DNA of 64,000 nt from Candidatus Gottesmanbacteria bacterium (GTDB lineage Bacteria; Patescibacteriota; Microgenomatia; 2-02-FULL-39-11). Numbering within the stretch: the stretch's first letter is position 1; the number at the start of each line of letters is the position of its first letter. The notes under the pieces were generated by a model. The model ran no database searches and was not told the DNA's origin. It worked only from the letters and a program-made list of their open reading frames with translations. Positions 810 to 34,289 of this stretch are shown here, piece by piece. A program made the position numbers and the translations under genes. Location of the stretch: NCBI GenBank assembly GCA_016186795.1, contig JACPKY010000002.1:925892-989891 (forward strand), in the 5' to 3' direction.

Positions 810-863
810 TTCACCCCCTCCGTAGTCTCGATGCAATCGGGACAAAGGAGGATCTATTATCTT

Positions 864-2195: not shown

Positions 2196-2372
2196 GTATG
2201 AATAGTATCAACTTATCCACATTTTCGTGGTAAATATCCCCAGAACTATCCACATCTATTGGGGGTCTTTGTACACATGATAAACAGATGGTTTTTCTCA
2301 TCCTTGACTGCTTTTTTGAAATTGCGTACACTTATCAACACTCTCTATAACTAATAATACTATTTACATCTT
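2196..2372. promoter_or_regulatory. dnaA-dnaN intergenic oriC-like segment with DnaA boxes TTATCCACA (2213-2221) and cTATCCACA (2246-2254), followed by an AT-rich stretch
   Basis: Box 9-mers read directly. AT-rich run 2330-2372 is a candidate DNA-unwinding element. Confidence 0.5.
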
Positions 2373-3482: not shown

Positions 3483-3491
3483 CAACATTTC

Positions 3492-4949: not shown

Positions 4950-5003
4950 AAGGAATCTTTTTGTTTATTTTATTATACGCTGAAATACTAGAGATGCTCA
5001 AAC

Positions 5004-7070: not shown

Positions 7071-7747
7071 TATGTAATCCTTCCTAATCCTTCAACGAGC
7101 GGTTTGCCGTATCCTGAAATTTCTCCCAATTTTTCACCTGTCATTGTTGGGTTGTAGAGGTTGTAGAAGATCTCGACAAGCTCTTGTGTCGTAAGTTGTC
7201 TTCCTCGTAGCCCAAACCGATTCAACTGTCGTAGTAAATGATCACGTTTCGGCAAAAGTGATGTTTTTGCACGAGAAAGGATATAGTCTTTGGAAAAAGG
7301 AAGTTTTTTCTTCTTTCCAAATGCCCCTTTTACTCCCAGTTCTAAACTTGAGAAGGAGATGACGATATAAAATCTTTTTTCCAATACTCGGTTTTCTTTG
7401 ACAATTGAGAGGATAAATTCCTTATACCGACGAAGCCTTTCTTTCAAAATAACGTCAACTTGAGTTTCTTCGACCTGAGTTATCAGCTCAATATACGAAG
7501 AAATATCCATCCGCTTGGAAAGAATGACAATTTGAAGAGGAAAAGAGAGAGAGTTCAAAAGCGATGCATAGGCGTAAATAAGCGCATCCTGCTCATCTTC
7601 AGAAAGAAGGCCAAAGTTTACCGCAGTTGTTTCGACAAGAAGCGCCGCGGATCCATCTTGAAGTATAAGAATATCATCGGCGATATCCTCTATTCCTAAA
7701 AAATCTTGTGTTGTTGCTCGAATTGGACTGGAGGTTGGTTGTGCCAT
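7070..7747 (-). CDS. VirB4 N-terminal-domain-like protein (possible split-off N-terminal module of the conjugative ATPase)
   Basis: DFLGIEDIADDILILQDGSAALLVETTAVNFGLLSEDEQDALIYAYASLLNSLSFPLQIVILSKR resembles the conserved N-terminal region of Gram-positive VirB4 homologues. Its stop overlaps the ATPase start (ATGA). Confidence 0.45.
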   Translation of the reverse strand: MAQPTSSPIRATTQDFLGIEDIADDILILQDGSAALLVETTAVNFGLLSEDEQDALIYAYASLLNSLSFPLQIVILSKRMDISSYIELITQVEETQVDVILKERLRRYKEFILSIVKENRVLEKRFYIVISFSSLELGVKGAFGKKKKLPFSKDYILSRAKTSLLPKRDHLLRQLNRFGLRGRQLTTQELVEIFYNLYNPTMTGEKLGEISGYGKPLVEGLGRIT

Positions 7748-7815
7748 ATATATATTATGAAAACTCGCTACACAAAACTCAAATGGCTGGTTATAAATTG
7801 CGGATTTGAGATTTC

Positions 7816-9123
7816 TTACGAATTTACGCTCCCAAATAGTTCTTTTGTGAGTTTTTCGCGCATGAGTTCACGTTCACCCTTTGCCAGGATTTCAATTGGA
7901 GGGAAAATGTTCCCCGAAAGAGTAATTTCAGCGATATCAAAAAAGTACCGCTTCAACGGATCTTCCATTTCCAAATGATATACGCCGTTTGACAATGGGG
8001 TTGCAGTAGAAAACTGGCCAAGCTTATTGGTTTTAAGTGCCCGAAGCGGTGTTCCGTTTTTGTCTTTAATGGTGACAATAATATTGGGAAGGAATTTTTT
8101 CTGCGGATCCTGAATGATCCCCACAATCATATTTGGGTATTGAGGGAAAGTCGCACCGATTTCTTTGGCTGTTGACGTTTGGGCGATCGTTTGGATTGTT
8201 GGTGGTTTTACCTCTTTCAACGCTGTTGGTGTCACAACTTCTGGCTGTTTGAGTTTTGCCAATTCTTCATGGAGACGTTTCAGTTCATTTTCTAGCGCCT
8301 CTTTCTCTTTTGCAATTTGATCCCACTTTTTTTGATAATTTTCCTTCCCCACCATAGGTGCAGTGTTTGTTAGAGGTGGTGAAACAGGATGTGTTTGGGC
8401 AATTGGTGTGGTACCGGCAGATGCAGGGACAGGAGGTTCTTGTGAAGGTTTTTGAGGTGTGGTATTTGGCGATGGCGCAATTGTGCTCTTTTGGGGTGAT
8501 GGACCGATAGGTACGTTTGATTGCAGTTTTTGACTAGGTGCTGAAAGAATTGTTTTGGGGACAGCATGTATTTGGTGAGGTACGGTGTGTGGTCGGCTAG
8601 CAATAACTGTATGAGTGCTGGAAGTGTTGGTATGAGGTTGTGGACCAAAAAGAGAAAGCGTATTTTCAAGATATTTTTTTTCAGCAAGGTTGAGATTTTC
8701 GTGTGGTTTTGAAGGGACAGTTGCCAGATACGCGGCTAGTTTTGATTTCGCTTCATTATGCTGAATGAGGTGTGTTGTGTTTGTGACCTGAATTCTGACA
8801 ACCGATGGTTGAGAAAACATATCGGCAATGATACTTTCCTTATGCCAGAGGTATTGTGTTGGAGAGAAGATGCTTCGTATGAAAGCCAAAAGCCATTTAT
8901 CAAGCGGTCGTTCCTGAATTGGGAGAAACGCAAATGCGACACCGCAAAACCCAAACAGGGCAGCGAGGGGAATATTTATAATCTGTGGAAGCGGTGAGAG
9001 ACGAAAGGTGACATACGCGATGAATGCGCCGCCGGCAAGATATCCGAATTGCCGAAGCGTCATGTCACCGATGAGGTGAAACTCAAAACTTGAAATGTTT
9101 CGAGGGACAGGATGTTGCTCCAT
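7816..9123 (-). CDS. PrgI-family (VirB3-like) membrane protein with a long C-terminal extension (Pro-rich linker, coiled coil, beta-sandwich-like domain)
   Basis: N-terminus FEFHLIGDMTLRQFGYLAGGAFIAYVTF...PLDKWLLAFIRSIF with two hydrophobic helices matches the PrgI-family pattern. First gene of the operon with VirB4. Confidence 0.5.
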   Translation of the reverse strand: MEQHPVPRNISSFEFHLIGDMTLRQFGYLAGGAFIAYVTFRLSPLPQIINIPLAALFGFCGVAFAFLPIQERPLDKWLLAFIRSIFSPTQYLWHKESIIADMFSQPSVVRIQVTNTTHLIQHNEAKSKLAAYLATVPSKPHENLNLAEKKYLENTLSLFGPQPHTNTSSTHTVIASRPHTVPHQIHAVPKTILSAPSQKLQSNVPIGPSPQKSTIAPSPNTTPQKPSQEPPVPASAGTTPIAQTHPVSPPLTNTAPMVGKENYQKKWDQIAKEKEALENELKRLHEELAKLKQPEVVTPTALKEVKPPTIQTIAQTSTAKEIGATFPQYPNMIVGIIQDPQKKFLPNIIVTIKDKNGTPLRALKTNKLGQFSTATPLSNGVYHLEMEDPLKRYFFDIAEITLSGNIFPPIEILAKGERELMREKLTKELFGSVNS

Positions 9124-9282: not shown

Positions 9283-12200
9283 ATGGCGGGAAGCCTTATT
9301 AATTTTACGCGCTATTTTAGAAGAGGGAGCAAGAATAATACTCCAAGCGATACTCCTGTTCAAGCAGATGCACATGCAAATGTTTCTCAAGAATTACCCA
9401 CAGAAACAAGCACTGTTCCTCAACCACATACGGCATCGTCAGTAGCCTATTCTGGAATTGGTAACCCGCCGGGTGGTATCTCCTACTCAGGTATTGGGAA
9501 TCCTCCAGCTCCTGCGTCGGCTGTAGGGAAAGGTCAGGTAACTTCTGCAATTGACAGTGGAAAACGTGTTGGTATGGATGTCCTGTCAAGACTTACCCAA
9601 CGGGCAAATCAATCACTCATGGCAAGTGTGACCAAAGCGAAAGAGTTAAAAATTCAGTACGTTGATACAGAGCACGTTCTCTGGGGGCTTCTCCACGATA
9701 GCAGTATTTACCAGCTTTTGTCTGAATGTAAAATTACTCCAAGTGAGCTGCAGGCTGAACTTGAGAAGGCATTTACATCAGGCAACTTTTCCGGACAACC
9801 TCATTTTTCCCCGAGAGTGAAACGAGTGTTGGAGCTTTCCCTATCTGCCGCGCGCTCGCTTGGGTACGAGTTTATTTCTCCGGAGCATATTCTCTTGGCT
9901 TTATCCCATGAGGGGGAAGGAGTGGCAGCGCGGATGCTTATTAAATACTCGCTCACGCAAGAGGTTCTAAATCAGAAGATAACAGGGAAGAAAGATCTGG
10001 AAAAGCAGGAAGAGCAGAAAAAAACTTCTGCCCTTGATGATTATACAGAAGATTTGACGGCAAAAGCCGTGCAAGGTCAGCTCGATCCTGTTGTCGGGCG
10101 AAGCGCCGAGATTGAAAGGATCGTTCATATTCTTTCAAGAAGAACCAAGAATAATCCGGTTCTTATTGGAGATGCCGGGGTAGGGAAAACAGCAATTGTA
10201 GAAGGTTTAGCACTTCGGATTGCCCACGGTGATGTCCCTGAGACGCTTCTTCATAAACGGATACTTCTCCTTGATCTCATGTCTTTGATTGCAGGGGCAA
10301 AACATAGAGGAGAGTTTGAGGAGCGGTTAAAAAATCTTATAAAAGAAGTAAAGGCGGCAACAGGCGCAATTATTCTTTTTGTCGATGAGATGCACAATAT
10401 GGTTGGTGCGGGAGGAAGCGGTGAGGGGACAATGGATGCGTCAAATATATTAAAACCATCTCTTGCTCGGGGTGAACTACAGGTTATTGGTACGACAACA
10501 ATAACAGAGTACCGTACGCATATCGAAAAGGATCCAGCTCTTGAAAGACGATTCCAGCCGGTGTATGTCGCAGAACCAACTGCTGAAGTAGCAATTGAGA
10601 TGCTTACTGCTCTTCGAGATAAGTACGAAGCGTTTCATAGGGTAAAAATATCTGATGAGGCAATTGAGGCAGCTGTCAGACTCTCGCAACGCTACATTGG
10701 TGACAGATTTCTTCCAGATAAAGCGGTCGACCTTATTGATGAGGGTGCTGCTGCCGTTCGCTTACCTTCAATTTCTCTTCCTGAAGAAATAAAATCGTTA
10801 GAAGATCGCCTTAAAAAACTTGAAAGTGAGAAAAGTGAAGCCGAAAAACTAGGCGATAGCGTCCATCTCGAGAGTCTTAAAAAAGAAGAGGAAGAACTTC
10901 GTGAACACGAAAAAAACCTTCAAGAGCAGTATCAACTGAAAAAATCAACCACAACGAATGCTGTTACCCCTGCAATTATTGCTGATATTATTTCCCGATG
11001 GACAGGTATTCCAGTTTCCCGGCTTACCGAGAGCGAGTCAACGAAACTGTTGGAATTAGAGGGGACTATTCATAAACGACTTATCAATCAGGAGGAGGCG
11101 GTCGTTGCTGTTTCTGAGGCAGTACGGCGTGGAAGGGCGGGACTGAAATCGAACAAGCGTCCAATCGGTAGTTTTGTCTTTCTGGGGCCAACTGGGGTTG
11201 GAAAAACTGAGCTCGCCAAAGCGTTGGCCGAAATTCTATTTGGAAGTGATGAAATGATTGTTCGGCTTGATATGACTGAGTATATGGAGAAGCACGAGGT
11301 GGCAAAACTCATTGGGGCTCCTCCAGGATATGTTGGGTATGAGGAAGGTGGGCAGCTGACTGAGGCAGTGAGACGGCATCCTTACTCTGTTGTCTTATTT
11401 GATGAAATCGAAAAAGCACACCCTGACGTATTCAATATTCTCATACAACTTCTCGATGACGGTCGTTTAACCGATAACAAAGGGCATACGATTTCATTTA
11501 AAAATACAATTGTCATTTGTACGTCAAATTTGGGAAGCGGCATCATTCAAGAGGAAATGTTGGGATGGAAGGAAAATGATCAGATAAAAGATAACGGTAA
11601 ACAGAAAACAGAAATATTTCAGACGTATGCGATTTCTCCAACCGGAAGGGAAATTGTAACTCTTGACGGGGATTATTGGGAGAAAGATGGGAAAGGCCAG
11701 TGGAAGAAAGGATCGCTTGTTGAGTATTTTGCTGGCTCAACGCTATCAAACGGCCAAGACACATTTCCTGTTGAAGGTTTTGACACACATACAATTTCTC
11801 AAGACGGTTCAGAAACGATTACAAGCGGTGACTCTCTTTGGTTTCGTACTTCAACAACGGTACGGGAATGGAGCATAGAAAAACTCGTGCCTTACTTCAA
11901 AAATCACATTGTTATAAACGCCAAACCCGATAAACCAGAGGAACAATTACCAACGGTGCGGATAGATTCCCATGCCCTCTCCCCTACCAACGAGGAAATT
12001 GTGACGTATGAGGGGCGGTTTTGGAAAAGGCAAAATCTTGCCTCAAAAGATTGGATGACCGGAGACATTTCTGAGTATTTTGCAAATTGCAAAGTGGAGA
12101 CCTCCACGGAAGAAAAACAAAAAGCAGCTGGAACTGGAAAAGGAGGGAATTTGATTACCAAAATGTCGCAAGAGAAACCTCAACAAGACGTATTCCCGAT

Positions 12201-13251
12201 AGACAAGTGGGATAGCCATCTCTTTACCCCGCTTGGAGAAGAAATCATTATTTCTAAGGGAAAGTACTGGAAGAGAAAATCGGCAGATGTTACGGTATGG
12301 AATATGGGCAACATTTCTGATCTTTTTTCTAAGGATAGAATGGTGGGAGATGTACCAATTGGGAGAGAGAAAGAAGAAGCAAAAGTTGGTAACAGTGCGT
12401 CTGATGACCAGTTTCAAAAACTTTCAAAGAGACTCATGGAGGAACTGCGGAAATTCTTCCGTCCTGAACTTCTGAACCGTTTTGATGAAGTCGTTGTTTT
12501 CCGTCCGCTAACCCGAGATCACATGCTGGAGATTGTCGGACTTCAGGTGAAGCTACTTTCAAAACTCCTTACCGAGCAAAATATTGCAATAGAAGTCAGC
12601 CACGACGCTTCGGTGTATCTATCCAAAGTAGGGTACGATCAAGTATTTGGCGCAAGACCTTTGAGAAGAATAATTCAACGCTTGGTTGAAAATCCTATTT
12701 CCTCGCTTCTTATTAAAGGCGAATTAGCAAGTGGGGGTCGCGTGCATGTGACATATGAAGGTGACCAACTTCAGTTTCAGATCCAAAAAATAGAAATGAA
12801 AAATGCTCAAACTCCTTCTCCGACAGTTGTCGATGAAAAGCGGCAACCTCTCCAAACCAGTCAACCGACACTTCAATCTCCGAAGCCGCTGGAGGAGAAA
12901 GTGTCCTACGGTTGCCAAAACTGCGGGCATACATGGGAAGAAGCAAAAAGTACGCATAGTTTGGTCTGCCCTGACTGCGGGAGTGAACTTATTTCACAAA
13001 AGGCCGAGTCTAGTACCTCTCAAGGGCCAGAACCATCAAAAGAAGAGAAACAAAATCCCCTTGAGATGTACTATCAACCGACAGATCAGGCAAAGAATGA
13101 CGTCTCACCTACACCCGTTTCCAAAGATTCCTCCTCAAGCGGCGTCTCAGGTTGCAGATACTCCCCCTTTTACGCGTTCCTTTCCCAAAGAGAGAAGAAA
13201 AAGGAGACTAAGGTATACAAGGCTGTTAAAACCGGTCATGAGAAAAAGTGA
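9283..13251 (+). CDS. ClpC/ClpB-like double-ring AAA+ unfoldase with an atypical roughly 300-aa insertion in D2 and a C-terminal C4 zinc ribbon
   Basis: Clp N-domain, D1 Walker [16 protein letters not shown] and Walker B LFVDEMH, short ClpC-like middle domain, D2 Walker [16 protein letters not shown], sensor region [15 protein letters not shown]. Alternative start at 9574 (M of MDVLSRL); the upstream 97 codons carry a GNPP tandem repeat. Confidence 0.85.
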
Positions 13252-13872
13252 AAGGGCAAAAAACTGGAATACTTCATCTGTCACAAGAAGAAACGTATTG
13301 GGGAAAACGACTCTTAATCCTGTTTGAGAAAGAAAAAGGAAGAGAATGATAATGATTGGTCCGGCAATAATAAGGCTCTCAACATCTTTTTTACTTGAAA
13401 ACATTGTCATCGATGTAACAAATAATAGATAACAAAGAATAGGTAACAGAACGAAAGAATACTGATTGGTTGTTATCCAGGAGAGGTTCACAAAAAATAT
13501 TTTTCCAAGAAAATAAATGAATGACAATCCCATAAGTATTGGTGCAAGACCAACAATTGCGTGTCTAAAAGGATCAACTTTTGCAATCATGAGCTTCCCA
13601 GCCCGAATCGTTCCATCTTTTTCGATTGTGGGAAAGATAGAAAGTTCGCCAGTTGGTACAAAAAGGATAAGAGCTACAAAAAAATGAGACAGCTCATGGA
13701 TGATGGTTCCCGGCAAAAGCACTATCGTGACAGCAAAAAGAGCCGCAGTTTTACTTCGTGTAGCAAGATATGCAAGAAGGTAGATAAAAGTAGATATTTT
13801 TTTAGAAAGGACAAAAAGGCAAAGTAGGAAGAGTATCGAAAGTATAATGTAGAAATAGAAAGGCAACGACAT
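13147..13872 (-). CDS. Polytopic membrane protein with HExxH motif (IIHELSHFF) in a TM helix; putative intramembrane zinc metalloprotease (site-2-protease-like)
   Basis: 6-7 hydrophobic segments with HELSH inside a helix. No clear second LDG motif, so family assignment is tentative. Confidence 0.4.
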
Positions 13873-15521
13873 TAACGTTCTCTTTCCTGAGTCTCCCGAG
13901 GTCCACCTGTGTCAAAGACGCTCAGTCCCATCGGGATCATCCCAATACCCATGAGAATTCCTAAGAAAGCCCCATCTGAGAGTCCCCGCTGCTTGGCCAT
14001 CTCTGCAATCTGAGCAGGAGTGACACTAAGGAGTCTTCTTAATGTGCCAATCTGCTTGTTATCAATATTAGCTCCCTGTGCAATTGTGGCTGTTCGATCG
14101 GTAACAAACTTAATGGGATTTTTCATAACATCTCTATCGAGACCTAGCTCAGTCTGGAAGAAAGAGGTTACTCCTGCGAGTTTATGACCGCGGAGAAGAG
14201 CTCGAACAAATCCCACTTCATGGGGATTTAATCCACCTTGATGAGATGCGCCAAGAAGGAGACCCTCGATACGTTCGGAAAGATTAGGATCTCGCGGATC
14301 TATCGAGTCAAGAGCGTGCTGGATACCATTCATGTACAAGAGGGTTGATTCCATCCGGATTTCACCGTTTTCGATCCGCTGGAGTGTTTGAGTGGCAAAC
14401 GCTTGCTCGGCAGGTGTATCGTCATAGAGGGCGCGAATGAGAATTTCCGTCTGTTGGTGGAGCGGGTCGTTTCCTTCGGTTTGGTAATAGAGAATATTTT
14501 CATTCATCTCGGCTCCGAGTTGGGTGATAGTTTCAACGGATAAATGCGCAGCGTGTCCTTGTGGAGAAAGTATAGCTTGCGTTGCACGAGTTACTCTGGC
14601 TGCAAAATTATCAATATTTCCGCTTCCGGATGTAAGGGCGTTTTCCAAGACGGAAGTCCAGAGCCCTACGACAAAAAGTTGCTGGTCTCCAGCTGGATCT
14701 TTCCCAAGTCCGGCGTAATATTCAGTAACAGCCTTGATTGCATGGTATGCTGTTGCCTTTACTTTTTCTCCCCGAGCTTTTACTGCTTCAGCCGATTGGG
14801 CTTCTGGAGTAGGTGGAGTAGCTGCCTTGTCTTCTCCTCCTTGGATCATAAATCGCATTTTCACTTTTGCGTTCGGATCCTCATCCGGTTTTAATCCACA
14901 GAGTTTCTGTTTTGCAGCAAGACGTCTGGCAAATCGTGTATGGGGGTCTACTTTTGCATCATCCCGGAATTGTTCCAAAGGAAACATCCCTTTGGCTTCA
15001 TTATCAACCATGTCATCCCATGCTCGGAGAGACATCGGTTTTGTAACCGTTCCATCGGCAAGAGTGACAACAACTTCTGTGCCGTCAAGGAGGCCACTGC
15101 GTGTTTCAACCGAAGAATCATGATGAGCTTTTTGCTCTGGAATTGCACTTCCGTGCGTTTGTGCTGCAATCCATTCGAGATTATCGATTGATGCAGGGTA
15201 GACGGATGATTGTAATAGTACACGATCATCATCAGTTGGTTTCTCCTTTTTCCTAAACGTGTTCATTGTGCTTTGGGCCTGTTCCATATTTTCCTCATGA
15301 AGCTCAAGAAGCTTTGCGAGGCCATCTCTTTCTGTATCTTGGGCTGTTGATAGTTTTTTTCCTAATTCAGCTGCACTTTCTGCTCGGTATGGTTCACCTT
15401 TAAAAAGAAGAAAACTTGCCTCTCTGGTAAGGTGCTGGCAATCTGTGGGTACAAGCGGTTTAACGGGAAAAGATTCTGGTTTTAATGTGACGATTTCTAG
15501 TGGAGCAGGAGCTGCTTGCAT
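13872..15521 (-). CDS. Hypothetical 549-aa protein with C-terminal TM anchor
   Basis: Long ORF with coding-like composition, GC-elevated, divergent from the giant repeat protein. No recognised domain. Confidence 0.45.
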   Translation of the reverse strand: MQAAPAPLEIVTLKPESFPVKPLVPTDCQHLTREASFLLFKGEPYRAESAAELGKKLSTAQDTERDGLAKLLELHEENMEQAQSTMNTFRKKEKPTDDDRVLLQSSVYPASIDNLEWIAAQTHGSAIPEQKAHHDSSVETRSGLLDGTEVVVTLADGTVTKPMSLRAWDDMVDNEAKGMFPLEQFRDDAKVDPHTRFARRLAAKQKLCGLKPDEDPNAKVKMRFMIQGGEDKAATPPTPEAQSAEAVKARGEKVKATAYHAIKAVTEYYAGLGKDPAGDQQLFVVGLWTSVLENALTSGSGNIDNFAARVTRATQAILSPQGHAAHLSVETITQLGAEMNENILYYQTEGNDPLHQQTEILIRALYDDTPAEQAFATQTLQRIENGEIRMESTLLYMNGIQHALDSIDPRDPNLSERIEGLLLGASHQGGLNPHEVGFVRALLRGHKLAGVTSFFQTELGLDRDVMKNPIKFVTDRTATIAQGANIDNKQIGTLRRLLSVTPAQIAEMAKQRGLSDGAFLGILMGIGMIPMGLSVFDTGGPRETQERER

Positions 15522-15611: not shown

Positions 15612-18600
15612 ATGAGTTCTTCTTCTGCCGATGCTATTCATCACCAACCATTTCCTGCAACCGTTGCTGAATCGGTTCCTTCAACTCCTGTTAATCAGGT
15701 TAATCAGGCTGGTTGGCAAACTGCCGAACCTCAACGACCTCAATTTGGTGCATATGAGAGAGGACGTATTGTTCCAGGAGCCAATCGGGAAGCCGGAGTT
15801 ACTCCCCATACCGTTGTTGAGCTTGGTCTTGATACCGAACTTGAGCTTTTTGATTCTCTCGAGGAAATAGTAAGTTTCCTTGATAAGTCCGATAATAAAG
15901 ATGCTCTTTCTCTCCTCTCAGAGGTTATGAAGGAAAAAATGGTTGATTTAAGAGACAGGGCTGCCGCTCTTTCCTTGGAGAGGAAAGATATCGAGGAACG
16001 GAAAGCAATTGAGGAAGAGTATGAAGAGGCTGTTAGACAAACAGCAAGACAACGGTTAGGTTTTAACTATGAGGCGAGAAATCGGACAACACGAGATGAT
16101 AAGTTGAAAAAACTGAATAAAAAGATTGAGAGGCGAAGAAAGGCAATTGAGGAATACAACAAAACGAGACCTGGAGAGACTCCTACACCTGGTGAAAAAC
16201 CAAAAAAAGTACCAAGAGAGCTTGAAGAGCTTATCAGTGATCATAATCTTGGATTAAGCGATTTAACTCCTGAAGACCTCAAGACCCGATTAGAAGCATA
16301 CCTTAAAAAAGACAGAAAGCCTTTGCAGATATTTGATAACCTCACCGATGTCATGCAAGCGTATTCCTTCCTTGAGAGTGCGGAGAAGATTGTTGCACTT
16401 CAAGCAGGACAAGATATTACCGATGGTGGGAGAAGACCTGTTGAGTTTGATTTTTCGGATGCAACAATTAATCGGGTAGCTCAAGCCGGGGTTCCAAACA
16501 CAACGGTGCAAGCACTCCGCGACATTGGGAGAAGAATCCGGATTGGAGATGTATTCGGAGTACAAGAGCTAATTGCAGGATTGTCGGTTGGGACCGTTGA
16601 AGCTCTCATGAATGCGCATAATTTTTGGCCTGCTCCAGGTGATGCTGCCCAAGCCGGTGCAGCGTTTGCCTTGGGAGTTGGGAGTATGCTATTTGTACGA
16701 GCAGTAGGTCGAAGAATGAACCATTGGCGCCTATCTTTTCCTCCGGAACGAGCTGAACAGAGAACTCAATATACGCTACAGTTTCACTTCATTCAACCTC
16801 CGCCCGGGGATGGAGGGAATCCTTTGCGACGAATGTACGGTGGTGATGCACGCCGAGCCGAACAATTCCTACAAGCAATTGATAATGTTCGTGTCGACAT
16901 TGCTAATAAACTAAAAGTCCATCCAGGACAGCTGGAGGGGTGGCTAAATTTAAGTAGTGCTGCATTAGGTGAGAGCGTTGAGGGGATGGAATTTCCTCAT
17001 CGAGTTGTCCTTGCTAAGAATATCGAACAAATATTGGCTCAAGAACATCGGAATGCGACTGGTGGCCATATACCGCTTGAGGAGTTATCAGCTGAGGAGC
17101 AGATTGAGGTTATTGAACGGGCGTTTGATGGAGTTGCACTTGCCATTGGCGGGGAAGCTATGGATGATGTAACTAAAAATGCGGCGATACGAAGAATGAT
17201 GGGAGAAGTTAATTGGGCTCAGCGGAGAAACGTTCTTGCAACTCATGTTGCAGAAATCCGGGCAGGAACACGCGTCTACCATGCAAGCGTGACTCCTCAC
17301 GCTTTAGAAGAAGCAAGGACACAGTTTGAGGCAGCAGAAAAGCAGGAAGCGCGACAATCTCAGGGGAAAGACGCATACGGAGCAAAATATACTGAGCTTC
17401 AAAATCAGTTGAGAACCTTGGAAACAGCGCGAATTGAGCTTGAAAATATTTCGACAATCAACGGTCATATTACAAGAGACGTTACAGTGAAGGGGAGAAA
17501 AGTTCATGAAGATGCAAGCGGAGAGATAGGGGTACTTGAGGCTGAAAAAACAAGGATTGATGGAGAAATTACGAAGCTTAAGGGTGAAATTGATGCAACA
17601 AATGCAAATGGACTGGAGGGTCAGTATAAACAAGCAAAACGCCGCTATGAAACGCTCCATGGGAAAGTTGAGGCTCTAAAAAGTAAGAAGCAAGCGGCGC
17701 AAGCAGAGATTGATACCCTTCAACGGGGAAGAGATAGAGCGAAAGCTGCAAAAATTGCTCAGTGGGAATCTATTCGAGATCAGGCAGAGCAGAATTTAAC
17801 AACTGCGCCATCTGGGCAAAAGACTCTGGAGGAACAGGAAGATGATGCATATTTAGCCTTTGTGCCACTCAAAGATCAGTATGAGCCAAAAACGGCAGAA
17901 GTTGGACGATTACAACAAAGGCAGAATGCAATCCCTGGTGAGATTCAAGCATTTGAGAGGGCAATTGCAGAGAAAGAGAAACTCTATCGAGTAGCTCAAT
18001 TGAATTATACTCTTGCCCAAAAAGAAGTACTTACTATTCTTCAGGATTTTGGATACAAATACACACCTGCTCAGTTGAGGAGTAGCTCACTTCGACTCCC
18101 CACGTCGCAAATGATTACTGACAAGTATACAGAACTCCATGTCGAGTATCAGGTGAAACAGAATCGTCTTACGGAGTTGGTAAGGCTTGCTGAGGCGGGA
18201 GTTAGTGAAGAAGATCTTCGGATTGCAACGCTTATTGAAACACTCTCAGGTGTTGTTGGTTCAGATCGTCTTAATAGTTTTATGCAGCAGCTTCTTTCCC
18301 GAGGGATAAAGTTGGAGGATCTTGCCAACACACAAAACAACGAGGGATATCACCTCATGTTAAAGTTCTTTTTCGGTGAGGATGCACTCACTCAAGGGAA
18401 GGACGGGAAGTATGCTCGAGCAACGACACTTCTAAGTAAAGCTCGATTATGTGATGAAGCTTTCAAAATCTGGCGCATCGATGATCGGGCATCAGGCGAT
18501 GGGTTTTTTGCAGGAGATGATGAAGGTCTACAACTATATCAGAATGCTCGTTTTATTTTTGAAACCAATAGAAGACTCACTCAGGAAGTTTTTAACCTTG

Positions 18601-20831
18601 AAAATGCAGTTGGGCAAACCCCTGCAACAATTGCTCTTATTGAACGGCGCCGAAGAGAAATTGCTGCAAACGAGGTAAAACGAAATGAAACGCTAAGTCA
18701 ACTTTACGATTCTCGTATCGCTCCTCTACTTTCTCTAGATAGAGTAAGAACCGGAATGGTTGTCATGCAGACGTTCCAAAAGCTTTCTGATGATGCGCTC
18801 AATGGATTTGTTGAACTAACTCCATCACCATCTGGGGCTCATGAAGAACTGGTGACTACTTCAGCCGGCCGAATGGTGATTACCGAGGCAAGCCACGACA
18901 CACTTACGCGAACAGTGATCGAACGTGGGGCGCTTAAAACTGAAAACATCGAAGGCGTGCCAGGGGTATCTATTGAGATGCATGTGACATCACTTGGTAC
19001 TCCAGGAAGACTTGATACGACAGTTGTTCTTGATCGTGATCAAGGAGTGGGTGATCGGATTGCAAATAGAAATTCCGCAGATACACCGGATGAAATCAGA
19101 TATATTTTCCATGGTGAGCCAAATAGACGGAGAGAATTTGTTGATACTGCAGCATTTACCGATGACTTATGGAATCTTTTGCCTGACCAAAGAGGAGATG
19201 CGAGACGTTTAGGAGTACCAAACGAATTTCTTGATTGGGTATATGGGGTGAATAGTTCTGGGGGTACTCCGAAGCGGCCTGTTGCAGAACTTCGCACATC
19301 GGCAATCAATATGTCCAATATGCCCGATGTACGGGGAAACTTCCGAGGTGTACCTTTGGAAATGCAGGACTTTTTTTACTACTACGATGATGCACGGAGA
19401 AGAGCAACTGTTGACTTAAACACAGTGACGGATGATGTTATAGCCGATATTGGCCCAGCCGATCGTCGTGGGGCTCTTGCTTCTGGTTTGCCTCAAGAGT
19501 TTGTCGATTTATTCTATAACCTTGATACGCCGGGAACTGTCAGATCTCTTGCCGATGTTCAAACGGCACTTGGTACAGTTACCGATGCAATGCTACAAAA
19601 TCTTCCTGATAGTAGAGTTGATGCGCTTAGTGAGGGATATCCGCAGCAATTTGTTGATTTTTTCTACGGCTCGGATATTCCTGGCGGGAAAAGGACCGTT
19701 ACTGCTTTGGAAAACATGGCAGGGACTGCAACCCTTGATGCTACTCAGTTTCCATCAACAGCTCAAATGGCTCGGAATATGGGGTGGTCAAATGACGTTG
19801 TGAATTTACTGTATGATCAGGCAAGCGGAGATTTACTCGATGATGATGGACTTACTGATCTTCTAGAAAATCGTGCACAGGATTTACTTAATGTGATGGG
19901 TCCGGCTGATCGAAATGCAGCTGTCGGGATGCCACAAAGTCTTATTGATATCGTCTATGCAGAAAATCAGCCAGGTAGAAAAAGGGTGGCTGCAAACGTA
20001 CGAGCCGATGCAGGAACTATCACTCCTGCACTTCTTGGCGCACTTCCTGCCGATCGACAGGGTGCACGGACTGAAGATTATCCCGATGAGATTGTTAGAC
20101 TTTTTTACGAAGCAGACAGAGCAGGGACGAAAAGAAACTTAGCAGAAGTTCAAGCGGCTTTACCGGGAGCTGCATTTCGTATCGATCAACTTCCTGAACT
20201 TGGGAATGCTTTAATCAATGGAGGTATTTTAGGTACAGATGCCTGGAGGTTTTTTTACAACCAAGTGACCGATATTAGACGGACAAATAGAAGTATCGAC
20301 GTATTTATCGAAGGACTTCCGGATGACCGTGTCAATGCACCTCCAGGGTTTGGGACTGCTTTAGACGTTCTCTATGATGCGACATCAGGGAAGAAGAGAA
20401 GTCTCCAAGATCTCCGAAAAATTCCACTCCATCGACAAGGGACATTTGGACGTGTCGAGTCACTTCTTGATAATCTTGGGATGGGTCCCATCGTTTATGA
20501 CCAGTTTGCCCAAGAAATTACCATGGGTGTTGCACAGATGGATGCTGTATCTCAGTCGAGACTTCTTGGAGACAGATTCCAGGAAGTTGTTGCTGGGAAT
20601 TTTCGAGTATACCTCATGAATGGTCAGTTGGGGATATATTTCCGTGATCCTCCCGATCCTGCGCTTCCAGAAAGAGTATCACATCGAATGTCGCTTCATC
20701 AATTTATCCAGGCCGATACCTACCCTCCAGAAGTCGGTGCCTATCTTACTCAAAATCCCGGAATAAAACGCGGAATTCTCATTAATACCGCACCGGCAAT
20801 TATTGAAGCTGTTCGAAATATATCGGTATAA
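15612..20831 (+). CDS. Giant 1739-aa protein: coiled-coil-rich N-terminal two thirds, one probable TM segment (about aa 340-365), C-terminal array of about nine tandem repeats of roughly 46 aa (LPxxRxxA..G.PxEFVDxFY...PGxKR)
   Basis: Uninterrupted ORF. Repeat units read directly between about 19180 and 20430. Composition GC-elevated (about 50%) versus the flanks. Confidence 0.6.
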   Translation: MSSSSADAIHHQPFPATVAESVPSTPVNQVNQAGWQTAEPQRPQFGAYERGRIVPGANREAGVTPHTVVELGLDTELELFDSLEEIVSFLDKSDNKDALSLLSEVMKEKMVDLRDRAAALSLERKDIEERKAIEEEYEEAVRQTARQRLGFNYEARNRTTRDDKLKKLNKKIERRRKAIEEYNKTRPGETPTPGEKPKKVPRELEELISDHNLGLSDLTPEDLKTRLEAYLKKDRKPLQIFDNLTDVMQAYSFLESAEKIVALQAGQDITDGGRRPVEFDFSDATINRVAQAGVPNTTVQALRDIGRRIRIGDVFGVQELIAGLSVGTVEALMNAHNFWPAPGDAAQAGAAFALGVGSMLFVRAVGRRMNHWRLSFPPERAEQRTQYTLQFHFIQPPPGDGGNPLRRMYGGDARRAEQFLQAIDNVRVDIANKLKVHPGQLEGWLNLSSAALGESVEGMEFPHRVVLAKNIEQILAQEHRNATGGHIPLEELSAEEQIEVIERAFDGVALAIGGEAMDDVTKNAAIRRMMGEVNWAQRRNVLATHVAEIRAGTRVYHASVTPHALEEARTQFEAAEKQEARQSQGKDAYGAKYTELQNQLRTLETARIELENISTINGHITRDVTVKGRKVHEDASGEIGVLEAEKTRIDGEITKLKGEIDATNANGLEGQYKQAKRRYETLHGKVEALKSKKQAAQAEIDTLQRGRDRAKAAKIAQWESIRDQAEQNLTTAPSGQKTLEEQEDDAYLAFVPLKDQYEPKTAEVGRLQQRQNAIPGEIQAFERAIAEKEKLYRVAQLNYTLAQKEVLTILQDFGYKYTPAQLRSSSLRLPTSQMITDKYTELHVEYQVKQNRLTELVRLAEAGVSEEDLRIATLIETLSGVVGSDRLNSFMQQLLSRGIKLEDLANTQNNEGYHLMLKFFFGEDALTQGKDGKYARATTLLSKARLCDEAFKIWRIDDRASGDGFFAGDDEGLQLYQNARFIFETNRRLTQEVFNLENAVGQTPATIALIERRRREIAANEVKRNETLSQLYDSRIAPLLSLDRVRTGMVVMQTFQKLSDDALNGFVELTPSPSGAHEELVTTSAGRMVITEASHDTLTRTVIERGALKTENIEGVPGVSIEMHVTSLGTPGRLDTTVVLDRDQGVGDRIANRNSADTPDEIRYIFHGEPNRRREFVDTAAFTDDLWNLLPDQRGDARRLGVPNEFLDWVYGVNSSGGTPKRPVAELRTSAINMSNMPDVRGNFRGVPLEMQDFFYYYDDARRRATVDLNTVTDDVIADIGPADRRGALASGLPQEFVDLFYNLDTPGTVRSLADVQTALGTVTDAMLQNLPDSRVDALSEGYPQQFVDFFYGSDIPGGKRTVTALENMAGTATLDATQFPSTAQMARNMGWSNDVVNLLYDQASGDLLDDDGLTDLLENRAQDLLNVMGPADRNAAVGMPQSLIDIVYAENQPGRKRVAANVRADAGTITPALLGALPADRQGARTEDYPDEIVRLFYEADRAGTKRNLAEVQAALPGAAFRIDQLPELGNALINGGILGTDAWRFFYNQVTDIRRTNRSIDVFIEGLPDDRVNAPPGFGTALDVLYDATSGKKRSLQDLRKIPLHRQGTFGRVESLLDNLGMGPIVYDQFAQEITMGVAQMDAVSQSRLLGDRFQEVVAGNFRVYLMNGQLGIYFRDPPDPALPERVSHRMSLHQFIQADTYPPEVGAYLTQNPGIKRGILINTAPAIIEAVRNISV

Positions 20832-20839
20832 TATCTAGT

Positions 20840-21220
20840 ATGACTGTCAATTTCGTTGCCTTACTGAAACTTGCCAATTTTCCCAAAGAGAAAATTGAAG
20901 CGCTCATGAAAAATATTGACTATGTGACTGAAGATGAGAAGTTTCGCCTTTCTAATCTTGCGTGGTACTTTATATCCAATAAATATTTCCTTCGGCTTTC
21001 CCTGGAGGAAAGGAAAGTTTTACAAGAGGTCAAGGAAGGGAAACGGGTATACAACCCAAGCGATTTGGAAGAAATAAAAGCCCGACTTACTCATGAATTA
21101 GCACAGAGCCTTCAAGCAGCAGATACCCAGCAGTCAATGGAGGATATCCGAAAGCAGCTAGAGATGCACAAGACAAAACCTCTTCCGGTTGATTCCTCTC
21201 CTCTACCGCAGAAAAAGTAA
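20840..21220 (+). CDS. Hypothetical 126-aa protein
   Basis: ORF directly downstream of the giant gene. No recognisable domain. Confidence 0.35.
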   Translation: MTVNFVALLKLANFPKEKIEALMKNIDYVTEDEKFRLSNLAWYFISNKYFLRLSLEERKVLQEVKEGKRVYNPSDLEEIKARLTHELAQSLQAADTQQSMEDIRKQLEMHKTKPLPVDSSPLPQKK

Positions 21221-29620: not shown

Positions 29621-31564
29621 TTAAGAGGGACGAGGGGACGGTACATACGTAGGTATTGGGGCACATCCACCCTTTGGTTCTGTTCCTTTGACAAAAACCT
29701 CCTGTCTTCCATGGCACGGTATTGTAATAATTCCCGAAGGGATGGGAAATGGGTTATTCTTCATATCTTTCAGTAGGTTTTTCATAATTTCATTCCAGAT
29801 TGGCGCTGCTCCTGTGACTCCCGATGTAAGTTTCGGATCCATGGGGGAGTTGTCGTTATTTCCTACCCACGTCACTGTTACGAAATCTTGCGTATAGCCA
29901 ATTGTCCAGTTATCCCGTTTATTATCGCTAGTTCCTGTTTTGACCGCGACTGTTTTTCCGGGAATAACAAGCGATGAATTTGGTCCAAATGCCGGAGTTC
30001 GGGCGTAGTTATCGGAGAGGATATGGGTGAGGAGATACGCGGTCTGAGGAGAGAGTGCTTGGATTGGATTATTTTGATCAGGAAGATTTATTGGTTCCCC
30101 CTTCCAATTGGTAATTTTAAGAATAGGGCGGGGATCAAATCGGCTTCCCCCGGAAGCAAGTGTTCCGTAAACCTTTGCCATATCGAGCATGGTTACGTCT
30201 CCTCCTCCAAGCGTCAAGGAAAGGCCAAAGCGATTTTCATCGGCCCAACTTGTGACTCCCATTCGTTTCCCTTGCTCTATCATATTTTTTACTCCAATTT
30301 GGGCTAAAACTTTGACAGCGGGTACATTGTAGGATGATCCGAGTGCCACTCGAAGGGTAACTGGGCCATGGAATGCGCCATCATAGTTAAGAGGGGAATA
30401 CGCAGGAAGATCATCCACTTTATATATGACTGGAGTATCATAAAGAATTGTTGCGGGGGTGTATCCTCGGTTGAGTGCTTCAGCGTAGGTAATGACTTTG
30501 ATTGACGATCCTGGTTGTCGAAGAGCTGTTGTGAGGTTGACGTTGCCTTCTTTCTCGATATCAAAGTAATTTGCTGATCCAACCATAGCAAGGATTTCTC
30601 CATTCTGCGGATTGGTTATGAGAGCTGCCGCATTCCCTACACGCATGGGTCTCAGAGTATCGATTTGTTGAGAAATGACATTCTCTGCCATTTCTTGAAG
30701 TGAAAGGTCAAGAGATGTTGTTACCCGAAATCCTTCATGCGCGACAATTTCTGCCCCAAAGTAATTATTGAGGAGATTTCGAACATACATGACAAAATGC
30801 GGTGCAAGAATTGGTGTGACAGGGGTTCGAAACGTTAGTGTTTGTTGTTTTGCCGTTTCAGCTTCTTGCCGGGTGATAAATCCCGCCTCTACCATTTTAT
30901 TGAGGACTTCCTTTTGACGAGTGATGGCAAATTGAGGGTGATCTCCAAAAGGAGAGTAGAGAGTTGGTGCAGCAGGAAGACCAGCAAGAAGAGAAGCTTC
31001 GGAAAGAGTAAGACTTTTTGTGTCTTTACCGAAATAATATTGTGCTGCAGCCTCTATTCCCCAGGCGGTTCCTCCGTAGGGGACTTGGTTTAAGTACATC
31101 TCCAGAATTTGGTCTTTGGTATAGACTCTTTCTGCCCAGACGGCAAGGACGATTTCAACAATTTTTCTCTGGACTGTTTTTTCTGGAGTTAAAAGCGCAC
31201 TCCTGACTAGTTGCTGTGTAATTGTCGATCCTCCCTGGAGTGTGGGGGAATTCAGATTGTGAAGAAACGCCCGAAGGATTCCTCGTGAAGATATTCCTTG
31301 GTGGTTGAAAAAATCTTTGTCTTCAATTGCAAGCGTTGCGTCAATAACATATTTGGGAATTTGCGCAATGGCAATTGGTGTTCTATTTTCTTCTGCAAAG
31401 TATTCATAGAGCAGTTTTCCATTGCGATCGTAAATTTTTGTTGTGGTGGGAATATCTCGAAGCGATAAATAATTGGGGTTTGGAAGAGCCGTGACAATGC
31501 CGTGAAGTCTGAATGAGATAGCAATTATGATGACAACGAGGCTTCCAAAAAGAAAATACTTCAT
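29621..31564 (-). CDS. Class A penicillin-binding protein (glycosyltransferase GT51 + transpeptidase), paralog 2
   Basis: GT51 motifs (AIEDKDFFNHQG, GGSTITQQLVR), transpeptidase SxxK/KTGT motifs. Start chosen at ATG 31564 (MKYFLFGSLVVIII, TM anchor); the 168 upstream codons in the ORF track are low-complexity and AT-rich. Confidence 0.8.
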   Translation of the reverse strand: MKYFLFGSLVVIIIAISFRLHGIVTALPNPNYLSLRDIPTTTKIYDRNGKLLYEYFAEENRTPIAIAQIPKYVIDATLAIEDKDFFNHQGISSRGILRAFLHNLNSPTLQGGSTITQQLVRSALLTPEKTVQRKIVEIVLAVWAERVYTKDQILEMYLNQVPYGGTAWGIEAAAQYYFGKDTKSLTLSEASLLAGLPAAPTLYSPFGDHPQFAITRQKEVLNKMVEAGFITRQEAETAKQQTLTFRTPVTPILAPHFVMYVRNLLNNYFGAEIVAHEGFRVTTSLDLSLQEMAENVISQQIDTLRPMRVGNAAALITNPQNGEILAMVGSANYFDIEKEGNVNLTTALRQPGSSIKVITYAEALNRGYTPATILYDTPVIYKVDDLPAYSPLNYDGAFHGPVTLRVALGSSYNVPAVKVLAQIGVKNMIEQGKRMGVTSWADENRFGLSLTLGGGDVTMLDMAKVYGTLASGGSRFDPRPILKITNWKGEPINLPDQNNPIQALSPQTAYLLTHILSDNYARTPAFGPNSSLVIPGKTVAVKTGTSDNKRDNWTIGYTQDFVTVTWVGNNDNSPMDPKLTSGVTGAAPIWNEIMKNLLKDMKNNPFPIPSGIITIPCHGRQEVFVKGTEPKGGCAPIPTYVPSPRPS

Positions 31565-32000
31565 TTTTAAAAGGGAAAGATAGAACGAATAACTAGAGAA
31601 GTACCCTTTGATGCGGAAAAATGTCGATAGAAATGGATTTTTGGGAAGTATAAGTCGAAAGTGACGTGACGAATAAATTGTATGGAGGGAATGGGACGAT
31701 GCAGAAGAGCTAGCTATTCTTTTTTTCCTAAAAAGATTCTGAAACGTACGTTTTCCGTTCATAAGTAGATGAACAAATATCTTCTTCTGTATACGCAAAA
31801 CTGCCCTAAGGAATGTATATTCCAAAGTAAGGAGGGTAGTACTAAAAGAAAGGAGTAGATCCCCAATAATTTTTAGGAAATAGAGAATACTTATAGGGAT
31901 GGAAAAGAGAACCGATAGGAATAAATTGTTTGTCTTATAGGATTTTTTCTTCATCGGGGAAGAACTATAGCACAGGTGAAGGGCATTTGTGAAGGGGATA

Positions 32001-34289
32001 TTAGGGTGATCTGACTGTTGTGACGGGATCTCCTCCCTCATGGGAACAGTCAATACAGTAGGAACCAAATGGGTCAGAAACTACCTGGTGTTCCTTCATC
32101 TCAATATTCTCTTTTTGAGAACTTGGAGCCATTTTTTGCGTCGTTGTATCAACGGCGATTGTAAGTTTTAGCTCTTCTGGATCTTTGGGAACCGTGCCTT
32201 TGATGAAGTACTCAAAGCGTGTCGGACAGCCTCGGTCTGAGGCATTGGGGTCAGTATTCGGAGGAGCTTTTCCTGAGAGAGCACATATTTGCACACCCAC
32301 AATATCGGCAGGCTGTTTTGGCCATAAGTCAGTTTGTGATTGTAACACTTTTCTCGTGAGAGTATTCCAGATTGGCGCAGCTCCCGTGACACCTGAAGTT
32401 AAATACGGATGCATTGGAGTATTATCGTTATTTCCTACCCAGACAGCTATCAGAAAATTGGGAGTAAAACCAATTGTCCAGTTGTCTCTTTTGTCATCCG
32501 TTGTTCCGGTTTTGACAGAGACTGCCCGGTTGGGAATGACAAGATAGGAGGAAGAACTAAATGCTTGAGAACGGGCATTATTATCTAAAAGTATATGTGA
32601 GATAAGAAACGACGTTTCGGGAGATAAAACTCGTGGTCCTTCAATAAGAAGGGATGAAGGGTATGATAACGGCGCATGGATGTCGGCGACAAAATTCTGG
32701 TCTCGGTACTCCTCCAGAACTTTTCCTTCTTTATCAGTGACTTTAAGAATACTGACAAGATCTTTGACGATTCCAGTGTTGGCAAAGACACCGAAGGCTT
32801 TTGCCATATCGAGCATGGTTACCTCTCCTCCTCCAAGTGTCAAAGAGAGACCGTACCGTGATGGATCGGTAAATGTTGAAATTCCCATGGCTGATGCGGA
32901 GGCAATGACTGTCGAAACGCCATTTTGAGCCATCATTTTGACAGCCGGAATATTGAAGGAGTTTCCAAGTGCAAAGCGAAGTTGTACCGGCCCATGGAAT
33001 TTTCCATCGTAGTTTACCGGACAGTACAGTGGTTGTCCTGGTACGGAAAAACATGTCGGAGCATCGATAAAAAGTGATGCAAGAGTAACTTTCTTGGTTT
33101 CTATTCCCACAGCATAGTTGATCGGTTTAAAGGCACTTCCTGGTTGTCGGAAGGAAGTTGTGACGTTGAAATTTCCTGATCCAGTAGCAAAATAATCTTT
33201 GGATCCGACCATCGCCAGAATTTCACCTGTTGGTGGTCTGGTAACAATAGAGGCACCATTGCCGACACGGAGATCTTTGAGTTTGGCAACTTCGGTTGCG
33301 ACAGTATCTTGAGCAATGTCTTGCGTAGGCAGATCAAGAGTAGTTGTGACACGAAGTCCGCCTTGCTCAACAAGTTTTTCTCCATATTTTTCCACAAGTT
33401 GTTCCTTCACGTACATGACAAAATGCGGTGCCTGGATATTTTCTATTTGGGGACGGAATTGGAGCGTTTCATTCTCTGCCATCTCTTTTTCTTCCTTTCC
33501 GATGTACCCATCCTCTACCATTCGTGCAAGAACTTCTTTTTGGCGTCGAATTGCATACTCAGGGTGTGCACCAAATGGAGAGTAGAGAGTTGGTGCAGCA
33601 GGAAGGCCAGCAAGAAGGGAAGCTTCGGAAAGGGTTAAGTCTTTTACCGGTTTTCCAAAATATCGTTCTGCTGCAGCCTCTATCCCCCAGGCGGTTCCTC
33701 CATAGGGGACTTGGTTTAAGTACATCTCCAGGATTTGGTCTTTGGAATAAAGCTGCTCTGTCCAAAAGGCAAGAATGATCTCTTTTATTTTCCGACTCAC
33801 TGTTCTTTCGGGTGTGAGGAGGGCAGTTTTCACAAGTTGCTGTGTAATTGTCGATCCTCCCTGGAGTTGTTTTTGAAGAAGCGTATCTTTGATGGCTCTC
33901 GCAACTCCACCGATGGGGTTGACTCCTTGATGCTTATAGAAATCTTTATCCTCAATTGCAATTGTTGCCCGTCTTAAATGTTGGGGTATATCGGAAAGTT
34001 TTACAAGTGTTCTATTCTGATCAGTATAGATTTCATAAAGGAGCGTTCCTGAACGGTCATAGATTTTTGTCGTTTGGGGAATTTCATAGGAAGAAAGTTT
34101 CGATGGAGACGGTAAGTCTTTCAGGATAAAAAAGAAAAAAGAGAATCCCAGAAGAATAAGAATACCGGAGAAAAAAATGAGCTTCTTTTTTTTATTTGGA
34201 ATTTTTTTTCCAACCGCCAAAATGCCTGAGCTCAGGCTTTTCCAAACATTTCGGGAGTGTTTTTTTTCCTCTATTTGCATGAAGGTCAA
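32001..34289 (-). CDS. Class A penicillin-binding protein (PBP1A-like), paralog 1, with Cys-containing C-terminal tail
   Basis: Same motif set (IAIEDKDFYKHQG, GGSTITQQLVK, KTGTTDDKRDNW). Clear paralog of the downstream gene. Confidence 0.85.
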   Translation of the reverse strand: MTFMQIEEKKHSRNVWKSLSSGILAVGKKIPNKKKKLIFFSGILILLGFSFFFFILKDLPSPSKLSSYEIPQTTKIYDRSGTLLYEIYTDQNRTLVKLSDIPQHLRRATIAIEDKDFYKHQGVNPIGGVARAIKDTLLQKQLQGGSTITQQLVKTALLTPERTVSRKIKEIILAFWTEQLYSKDQILEMYLNQVPYGGTAWGIEAAAERYFGKPVKDLTLSEASLLAGLPAAPTLYSPFGAHPEYAIRRQKEVLARMVEDGYIGKEEKEMAENETLQFRPQIENIQAPHFVMYVKEQLVEKYGEKLVEQGGLRVTTTLDLPTQDIAQDTVATEVAKLKDLRVGNGASIVTRPPTGEILAMVGSKDYFATGSGNFNVTTSFRQPGSAFKPINYAVGIETKKVTLASLFIDAPTCFSVPGQPLYCPVNYDGKFHGPVQLRFALGNSFNIPAVKMMAQNGVSTVIASASAMGISTFTDPSRYGLSLTLGGGEVTMLDMAKAFGVFANTGIVKDLVSILKVTDKEGKVLEEYRDQNFVADIHAPLSYPSSLLIEGPRVLSPETSFLISHILLDNNARSQAFSSSSYLVIPNRAVSVKTGTTDDKRDNWTIGFTPNFLIAVWVGNNDNTPMHPYLTSGVTGAAPIWNTLTRKVLQSQTDLWPKQPADIVGVQICALSGKAPPNTDPNASDRGCPTRFEYFIKGTVPKDPEELKLTIAVDTTTQKMAPSSQKENIEMKEHQVVSDPFGSYCIDCSHEGGDPVTTVRSP

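Follow-up and report, generated by a model that had tools for sequence, protein, structure and literature searches.

A variable-copy tandem repeat with a predicted helical fold in a giant orphan protein of Candidatus Gottesmanbacteria

A stretch of 64,000 nucleotides from a Candidatus Gottesmanbacteria bacterium (GenBank assembly GCA_016186795.1, contig JACPKY010000002.1, positions 925,892 to 989,891 of the forward strand; hereafter the window, with positions counted from its first letter) contains a giant open reading frame (ORF) at 15612–20831 (+) that encodes 1739 residues. Residues 1146–1611 of the product, at 19047–20444 (+), form an array of ten tandem units. An exact copy of the giant protein is on record as the NCBI hypothetical protein HYW55_06025, from Candidatus Gottesmanbacteria (Candidate Phyla Radiation [CPR], Microgenomates). 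In CPR bacteria, large orphan proteins are numerous and rank as prime suspects for contact with hosts; orphan repeats comparable to this one are common in their genomes.

The array is one of several parts of the protein. Reading from the N-terminus, a variable beginning is followed by a conserved helical region, a mildly hydrophobic patch rich in Gly and Ala (about residues 310–370), a conserved domain with a GWLNLSS..LGE motif, a long charged stretch (about residues 560–900), a helical domain, a beta-rich domain, the repeat array, and a C-terminal alpha/beta domain. The charged stretch occupies the middle third and, judging from composition only, may form a coiled coil. The beta-rich domain directly precedes the array (18840–19031 (+), about residues 1077–1140) and has five strands predicted at low confidence (predicted local distance difference test [pLDDT] of about 45–58). 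The C-terminal domain (20499–20828 (+), about residues 1630–1739) is kept in homologues and is the best-predicted part of the model of the C-terminal region (pLDDT 76–85).

The ten units, u0 to u9, are 42–50 residues long (mean 46.6), in agreement with the original prediction of about nine copies of some 46 residues in the C-terminal third. The three example peptides given with that prediction are exact substrings of the translation and fall in u4, u7, and u6. Its range, 19180–20430, begins at u1 and leaves out a degenerate unit, u0, and the final 14 nucleotides of u9. Each unit was evaluated by a leave-one-out test in which a hidden Markov model built from the nine other units was scored on the omitted unit and on 300 shuffles of it. 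Seven units (u1, u2, u3, u4, u6, u7, and u9) score 13.6–46.2 bits, the best shuffle reaches no more than 8.9 bits, and 0 of 300 shuffles attain the observed score. The remaining three are marginal and are matched by 8–19 of 300 shuffles, yet all three keep the register, and for two of them, u0 and u8, homologous proteins carry a positional orthologue.

Units differ in type and in how well they are preserved. The array begins with u0 (19047–19178, residues 1146–1189), a degenerate unit of "short" type that is orthologous by position to the first unit of each of the five homologues described below. It is followed by u1 (19179–19319, residues 1190–1236; 27.9 bits, 0/300 shuffles), of "long" type, u2 (19320–19451, residues 1237–1280; 14.4 bits, 0/300 shuffles), of "short" type with FFYYY…RRR, and u3 (19452–19601, residues 1281–1330; 46.2 bits), again "long." Three units belong to an expansion specific to the window protein: u4 (19602–19748, residues 1331–1379; 40.2 bits), u6 (19899–20042, residues 1430–1477; 22.9 bits), and u7 (20043–20189, residues 1478–1526; 43.6 bits), the latter two nearest to u3. 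Between them, u5 (19749–19898, residues 1380–1429) is degenerate, retaining φφNφφY and having lost LPxxR and the basic pair (2.5 bits, 8/300 shuffles). The array closes with u8 (20190–20315, residues 1527–1568), a degenerate "short" unit orthologous to the penultimate unit of the homologues, and u9 (20316–20444, residues 1569–1611; 13.6 bits, 0/300 shuffles), orthologous to their last. All ten are encoded on the plus strand.

The periodicity is also recovered without any prior definition of units, as ungapped self-diagonal scores peak at lags of 50 residues (z 4.8), 91 residues (z 3.8), and 97–99 residues (z 2.8). The tandem repeat is thus real. Pairwise protein identity between units is 5–47%, and the unit model matches no other ORF of the window. 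Neither Tandem Repeats Finder nor a direct-repeat search detected a repeat at the DNA level in 19000–20500, so the duplications are old and the array does not act as a contingency locus prone to slippage.

Comparisons to known families returned no assignment. Searches of Pfam found no family at E ≤ 0.01 for the whole giant protein and nothing at E ≤ 10, including PG_binding or any other binding domain, for the isolated 466-residue array. For the five homologues, searches at E ≤ 1 or E ≤ 0.1 gave weak matches (best E of 0.0008) and no repeat family (TPR, Sel1, HEAT, ARM, Ank, PPR, LRR, or others). Several of these matches are of coiled-coil type (HALZ, KIF21A_4th, T3SSipB at E of 0.026, EsxA at E of 0.06) and were rejected as compositional. 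There were no matches in NCBIfam, PHROGs, or PADLOC, and sequence searches of the PDB with a single sequence, a family profile, and a 27-unit profile had a best E of 0.72, from the unit profile. Structural comparisons with Foldseek reached a best E of 2.2 for a model of a pair of units against viral structures and 0.64 for a larger C-terminal model, informative only for its last 110 residues, against the PDB. Among all tests run, the repeat belongs to no known family, as had been anticipated from the absence of a recognizable repeat class.

Relatives of the giant protein are few. When 1.84 billion representative proteins were searched with a profile built from the ten units, six matched besides the query. 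Three are true relatives, P0002 (1565 residues), P0003 (1571 residues), and P0005 (1483 residues), which are collinear full-length homologues with 28–34% identity and repeat matches at the equivalent C-terminal position. The other three (P0004, P0006, and P0007) were discarded as unrelated repetitive proteins after reading of their sequences. Probing with the small gene directly downstream of the giant gene identified two more loci, one in Gottesmanbacteria GW2011_GWA2_43_14, with a giant gene encoding 1443 residues, and another on a partial contig. The family therefore consists of six proteins with 26–34% identity: that of the window, P0002, P0003, P0005, and those of loci L009 and L010. Its members are collinear over their full length, carry the array between beta-rich and C-terminal domains, and are followed by the conserved small gene. 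All known members come from one subgroup of Candidatus Gottesmanbacteria; P0003 is annotated as Candidatus Gottesmanbacteria, as are both of the homologues with a named source.

Sensitivity differed among searches. Scanning GTDB species genomes for patterns from the alignment of giant proteins found nothing, and the better-conserved small neighbor is the better probe. A word-indexed protein search given the four-member family profile returned only the window protein and missed P0002, P0003, and P0005, though all three are in the collection; with the C-terminal 590 residues it returned nothing, missing even the query's own entry, and with the full protein it returned only the query. Null results of that search were consequently not read as absence. 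Although three of the ten units fall short of significance individually, a chance or compositional artifact, or a false ORF, is practically ruled out by the absence of matches to the unit model in other ORFs of the window, by the seven units that outscore all shuffles, by relatives that are full-length homologues only, and by the synteny described below.

Copy number varies across the family as the original prediction had proposed to check, ranging from 4 to 10 units in six proteins. There are ten units in the window protein, six in P0002 and P0003, and four in P0005 and the proteins of L010 and L009. In each homologue, two to three units are individually significant against the profile derived from the window, and the others were assigned by register and conserved core. 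The 34 units share the signature LPxxR..A...GφP..φφDφφY…[KR][KR]…[DE]φ. Positions 17, 20, and 21 are hydrophobic in all 34 units, Tyr22 is present in 33, and a basic residue occupies position 31 in 33 and position 30 in 30. Arg5 (25/34), Pro14 (23/34), and Ala8 (21/34) are less strictly kept. In the homologues, units of "short" type (…FYYY…RRR…) alternate with units of "long" type (LPxxR…FYG…G.K[KR]S…).

Clustering of units separates the ends of the array from its middle. Across species, first units cluster with first units, and penultimate and last units likewise with their positional counterparts; u1–u4, u6, and u7 of the window protein are each other's closest relatives, and alignments of the family place u4–u7 as an insertion specific to the window protein. 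By these patterns, the end units are positional orthologues, and the middle units of the window protein represent an expansion specific to its lineage. The sequences suggest an ancestor with four units, from which the ends of the array stayed fixed while internal units were duplicated in some lineages (from 4, to 6, to 10).

Structure prediction gave helical units, as had been suspected, and lends moderate confidence to a helical fold of the unit. AlphaFold2 was applied to u2 and u3 with an alignment of 13 nonoverlapping pairs of short and long units from four proteins and yielded a mean pLDDT of 72.4 and a predicted template modeling score (pTM) of 0.58. In this model, the long unit (u3) has a helix of 6 residues, a helix of 7 residues, a loop that holds the basic pair and is closed by a beta-bridge, and a helix of 17 residues that extends to the boundary of the unit. 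A model of residues 1041–1739 (699 residues, alignment of four sequences) shows a beta-rich domain before the array, helical units, and the better-defined alpha/beta domain at residues 1630–1739.

We tentatively favor the possibility that the array is a family-specific alpha-helical repeat that forms an elongated arm of variable length, serving as a spacer or a platform for docking. A unit, of about 46 residues, would comprise two short helices, LPxxRxxA and PxxφφDφφY, followed by a short bridged loop with the almost invariant basic pair and a longer third helix that would run on into the LP of the next unit. The conserved residues (mostly Pro and Gly at helix caps, hydrophobic residues of the core, a single Tyr, and a small number of charged positions) would act as structural staples and not as a ligand-binding site. 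The array would connect the beta-rich domain to the conserved C-terminal alpha/beta domain, with its first unit and last two units fixed and its middle duplicated in some lineages, and, whether as a spacer or as a platform for multivalent docking, may determine how far the C-terminal domain reaches. We favor an arm or spacer because the conserved positions look structural, the charge of the array is not conserved, the ends are fixed while the middle expands, and the last helix of a unit is predicted to continue into the next. Net charge of the array ranges from –20 to +1 among homologues, which speaks against a conserved role in binding a polyanion.

Several points weigh against an arm. Three of the ten units (u0, u5, and u8) are degenerate, the model of the unit was built on a shallow alignment of paralogous units, and the 699-residue model of the C-terminal region is of poor overall quality (pLDDT 53.8, pTM 0.26). 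A rod shape would depend on how units pack against one another, which is an inference from an unbroken third helix and from the pTM value. A repeated binding site would account equally well for the invariant Tyr and the basic pair.

Such a site is central to another explanation, in which each unit is an independent three-helix binding domain and the array binds a repetitive polymer, such as a cell-wall glycan or another repeat protein, through avidity. The near invariance of Tyr22 and [KR][KR] in 34 units is consistent with multivalent binding, as is the presence downstream of genes of the cell envelope (those for a DUF4012 protein, a LytR_cpsA_psr protein, and two class A penicillin-binding proteins). 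But the lack of any PG_binding or other binding domain at E ≤ 10, a third helix predicted to be continuous into the next unit, an array charge that is not conserved, and the lack of an evident export signal make independent binding domains rather unlikely.

The array-bearing gene is accompanied by a conserved set of three to four neighboring genes, depending on locus. Immediately downstream, 8 nucleotides past the stop of the giant gene, is a gene for a small helical protein of 126 residues (20840–21220 (+)) that is directly downstream in every homologous locus. Homologues of 114–135 residues are encoded in L004 (the P0003 locus; 7411–7818), L006 (6704–7048), L007 (6426–6827), and L010 (10001–10378). 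An almost invariant ALLK.ANFPK…NIDYV motif opens the small protein, which, at 46–59% identity across loci, is better conserved than the giant protein and the best conserved member of the module; it has no match in any library searched. Divergent from the giant gene is that of a 549-residue orphan with a C-terminal hydrophobic tail (13872–15521 (–)), and a protein of about 540–620 residues is encoded there in all homologous loci. Its N-terminal 250 residues are homologous to those of the proteins in L004 and L007, and its counterparts fall into two subfamilies unlinked by BLAST or a simple profile. Next to it, a polytopic membrane protein of 241 residues with a HELSH (HExxH) motif (13147–13872 (–)) has homologues at the equivalent place in L006 and L010. 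It has about seven hydrophobic segments and no Pfam match at E ≤ 1, and is possibly an intramembrane metalloprotease.

The conserved membrane protein raises a further explanation, that the array is a polyprotein-like precursor cut at LPxxR and the dibasic KR/RR, for example by the HExxH neighbor, releasing peptides of about 46 residues. A dibasic pair and an LP motif do occur once per unit, and the putative HExxH membrane protein is a conserved neighbor. However, the units have a conserved pattern of core hydrophobics and a helical fold predicted with moderate confidence, the array lies inside a multidomain protein of 1739 residues with a conserved domain after it, and no precursor peptide or enzyme of the type that acts on ribosomally synthesized and post-translationally modified peptides was found nearby. 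We regard processing into peptides as pure speculation and highly implausible.

The wider neighborhood bears on inheritance. Downstream of the small gene are genes for RNase H, the DUF4012 protein, a DehI-like protein, and the LytR_cpsA_psr protein. The L010 locus is syntenic with the window from the ClpB gene through that of ribosomal protein L25 and beyond, which marks a vertically inherited chromosomal block. Origin in a mobile element or defense system was rejected, given no matches to plasmids, phages, IMG/VR, PHROGs, or PADLOC and the synteny with housekeeping genes kept in L010. A polymorphic toxin with its immunity gene was likewise rejected, as the C-terminal domain aligns in all homologues, the small gene is the better conserved of the two, and no Pfam toxin or trafficking domain was found.

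On its other side, the module approaches the replication origin region, at which the window begins. At 831–9123, dnaA and dnaN are directly followed by an orphan gene and, on the opposite strand, a gene set resembling a type IV secretion system (T4SS); the set encodes a VirB4-like ATPase, a TraC/TrsD-like protein of 225 residues, and a PrgI-family protein of 435 residues. The order agrees with the T4SS arrangement near the origin that has been described for Patescibacteria (PMC12102498). Cumulative GC skew climbs monotonically across the window from the dnaA/dnaN region. The T4SS-like set is followed by the genes for a ClpB homologue, the 241-residue membrane protein (–), the 549-residue orphan (–), the giant protein, and the 126-residue protein.

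This arrangement invites the explanation that the giant protein is a T4SS substrate or effector, or a surface scaffold for interaction with a host, and that its repeats attach to or manipulate the host of a probable episymbiont. Its VirB4-, TraC/TrsD-, and PrgI-like genes are 6.5–10 kb upstream of the giant gene, and T4SS genes are reported to be essential for epibiotic growth in Saccharimonadia (PMC12102498). Giant proteins also diverge fast (26–34% identity vs 36–80% for adjacent genes in the same genome pair), their copy number of units varies, two of the conserved partners are membrane proteins, and cysteine is mildly depleted (one observed vs about six expected). As an argument for export, however, cysteine depletion was set aside as too weak, the genome itself being cysteine-poor.

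Proximity to T4SS genes provides little specific information because clusters of virB4 adjoining dnaA/dnaN are common across Patescibacteria, including Microgenomatia, and the T4SSs of Patescibacteria have no known substrates (PMC12102498). In the window, the ClpB gene and two genes on the opposite strand intervene between the T4SS genes and the giant gene. In L004, the module is flanked by genes for a nucleoside deoxyribosyltransferase, an adenosine deaminase, and small membrane proteins, with no T4SS genes among the genes called there. In L010, the ClpB side is kept, and the stretch examined ends at that side; the contigs of the other loci are too short to reach such genes. The conserved partners of the giant gene are three other orphan proteins and not T4SS genes. 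No coupling-protein gene was recognized among the genes scanned near the giant gene, although the whole window was not screened for one, and no relatives were found on plasmids, phages, or viral contigs.

Features of the protein itself also offer little in favor of export. By simple hydropathy, with no dedicated predictor run, no N-terminal signal peptide is evident, and the N-terminus (MSSSSADAIHHQPFPATVAES…) is without a hydrophobic h-region. Hydropathy likewise detected no robust transmembrane segment; the only hydrophobic windows are weak (Kyte–Doolittle 1.3–1.6) and confined to residues 311–366, within the Gly/Ala-rich patch. A membrane hairpin formed by this patch was considered and rejected, as its hydropathy is marginal and variable in homologues, and the protein of L010 has no window above 1.2. 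At the C-terminus, no anchor to wall or membrane is evident, and the protein ends in a soluble-looking alpha/beta domain. Together, these observations make a role as T4SS substrate, effector, or surface scaffold distinctly unlikely. We consider very unlikely the more elaborate proposal that the array is an unclassified helical repeat acting as an adjustable host-facing arm, exported or displayed by the origin-proximal T4SS-like apparatus, with copy number tuning attachment to host cells.

Other genes of the window and of its homologous loci have features of their own. The ClpB homologue (9283–13251 (+), 1322 residues) has an insertion of about 290 residues between the AAA_2 and D2-small domains (about 11605–12420), containing four tandem units of about 55–60 residues that roughly follow [ST][HY].[IL]SP.G.E[IV].T..G.[YF]W.[KR]…W..G.[IL]..[YL]F. 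Its sole Pfam match is weak (CBM30, E of 3e-4). Also present in this protein are an N-terminal extension of low complexity, in which YSGIGNPPG is duplicated, and a zinc ribbon (CxxC…CxxC) at the C-terminus. The ClpB homologue of L010 aligns over the insertion part at 50% identity, which suggests that L010 has kept the insertion. In L004 (8364–10140), the module is followed downstream by four tandem paralogous small membrane proteins of about 104–123 residues with similar N-termini (…LGFLLGFF.S.YF…), none of which occurs in the window. Class A penicillin-binding proteins of 815 and 762 residues, adjacent to each other and with transglycosylase and transpeptidase domains, are encoded at 29621–34289 (–), and their listed ORFs overlap by 68 nucleotides. 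At 56585–60016 (+), the large subunit of ribonucleotide reductase is split by an intein with a LAGLIDADG homing-endonuclease domain, identified by Pfam matches to Intein_splicing and LAGLIDADG_3 within the match to Ribonuc_red_lgC.

The analysis provides one CPR orphan giant with a defined anatomy: a repeat signature, boundaries of units, a family of six members, a conserved set of neighbors, and evidence of growth by internal duplication. This is enough for a family annotation model and for the design of constructs. Its value is mainly descriptive. If it were true that a T4SS-like apparatus displays or exports the giant protein, the finding would gain interest.

Among known systems, the array most invites comparison with repeats and repeat proteins of four kinds. 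Three-helix peptidoglycan-binding domains of the PG_binding_1 type, such as that of phage phiKZ gp144, differ in their motifs, have no sequence or profile similarity to the units, and gave scores that are not significant. Repeat-containing effectors of T4SSs, such as the Ank and Sel1 proteins of Legionella and Coxiella, are also large helical-repeat proteins encoded on a chromosome that has T4SS genes. In contrast to these, the giant protein has non-T4SS genes beside its module in L004, no recognizable translocation signal, no coupling-protein gene recognized among the genes scanned nearby, and repeats of another family. The "periscope" stalks of fibrillar adhesins (SasG and Rib-domain proteins) resemble the giant protein in layout: repeats whose copy number varies separate a stalk or anchoring portion from a globular domain at the end, which suggests a role in setting length. 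Periscope proteins are rich in beta structure, carry wall anchors as well as Sec signal peptides, and have repeats that are near-identical in DNA, whereas the giant protein has predicted helical units, no evident signal peptide or anchor, and no repeat at the DNA level. With classical alpha-helical repeats (TPR, Sel1, HEAT/ARM, ankyrin, and PPR), the array shares tandem units of 30–50 residues built of short helices, conserved positions that are mostly helix caps and core hydrophobics, and orthologues that differ in copy number, with end units kept and internal units duplicated.

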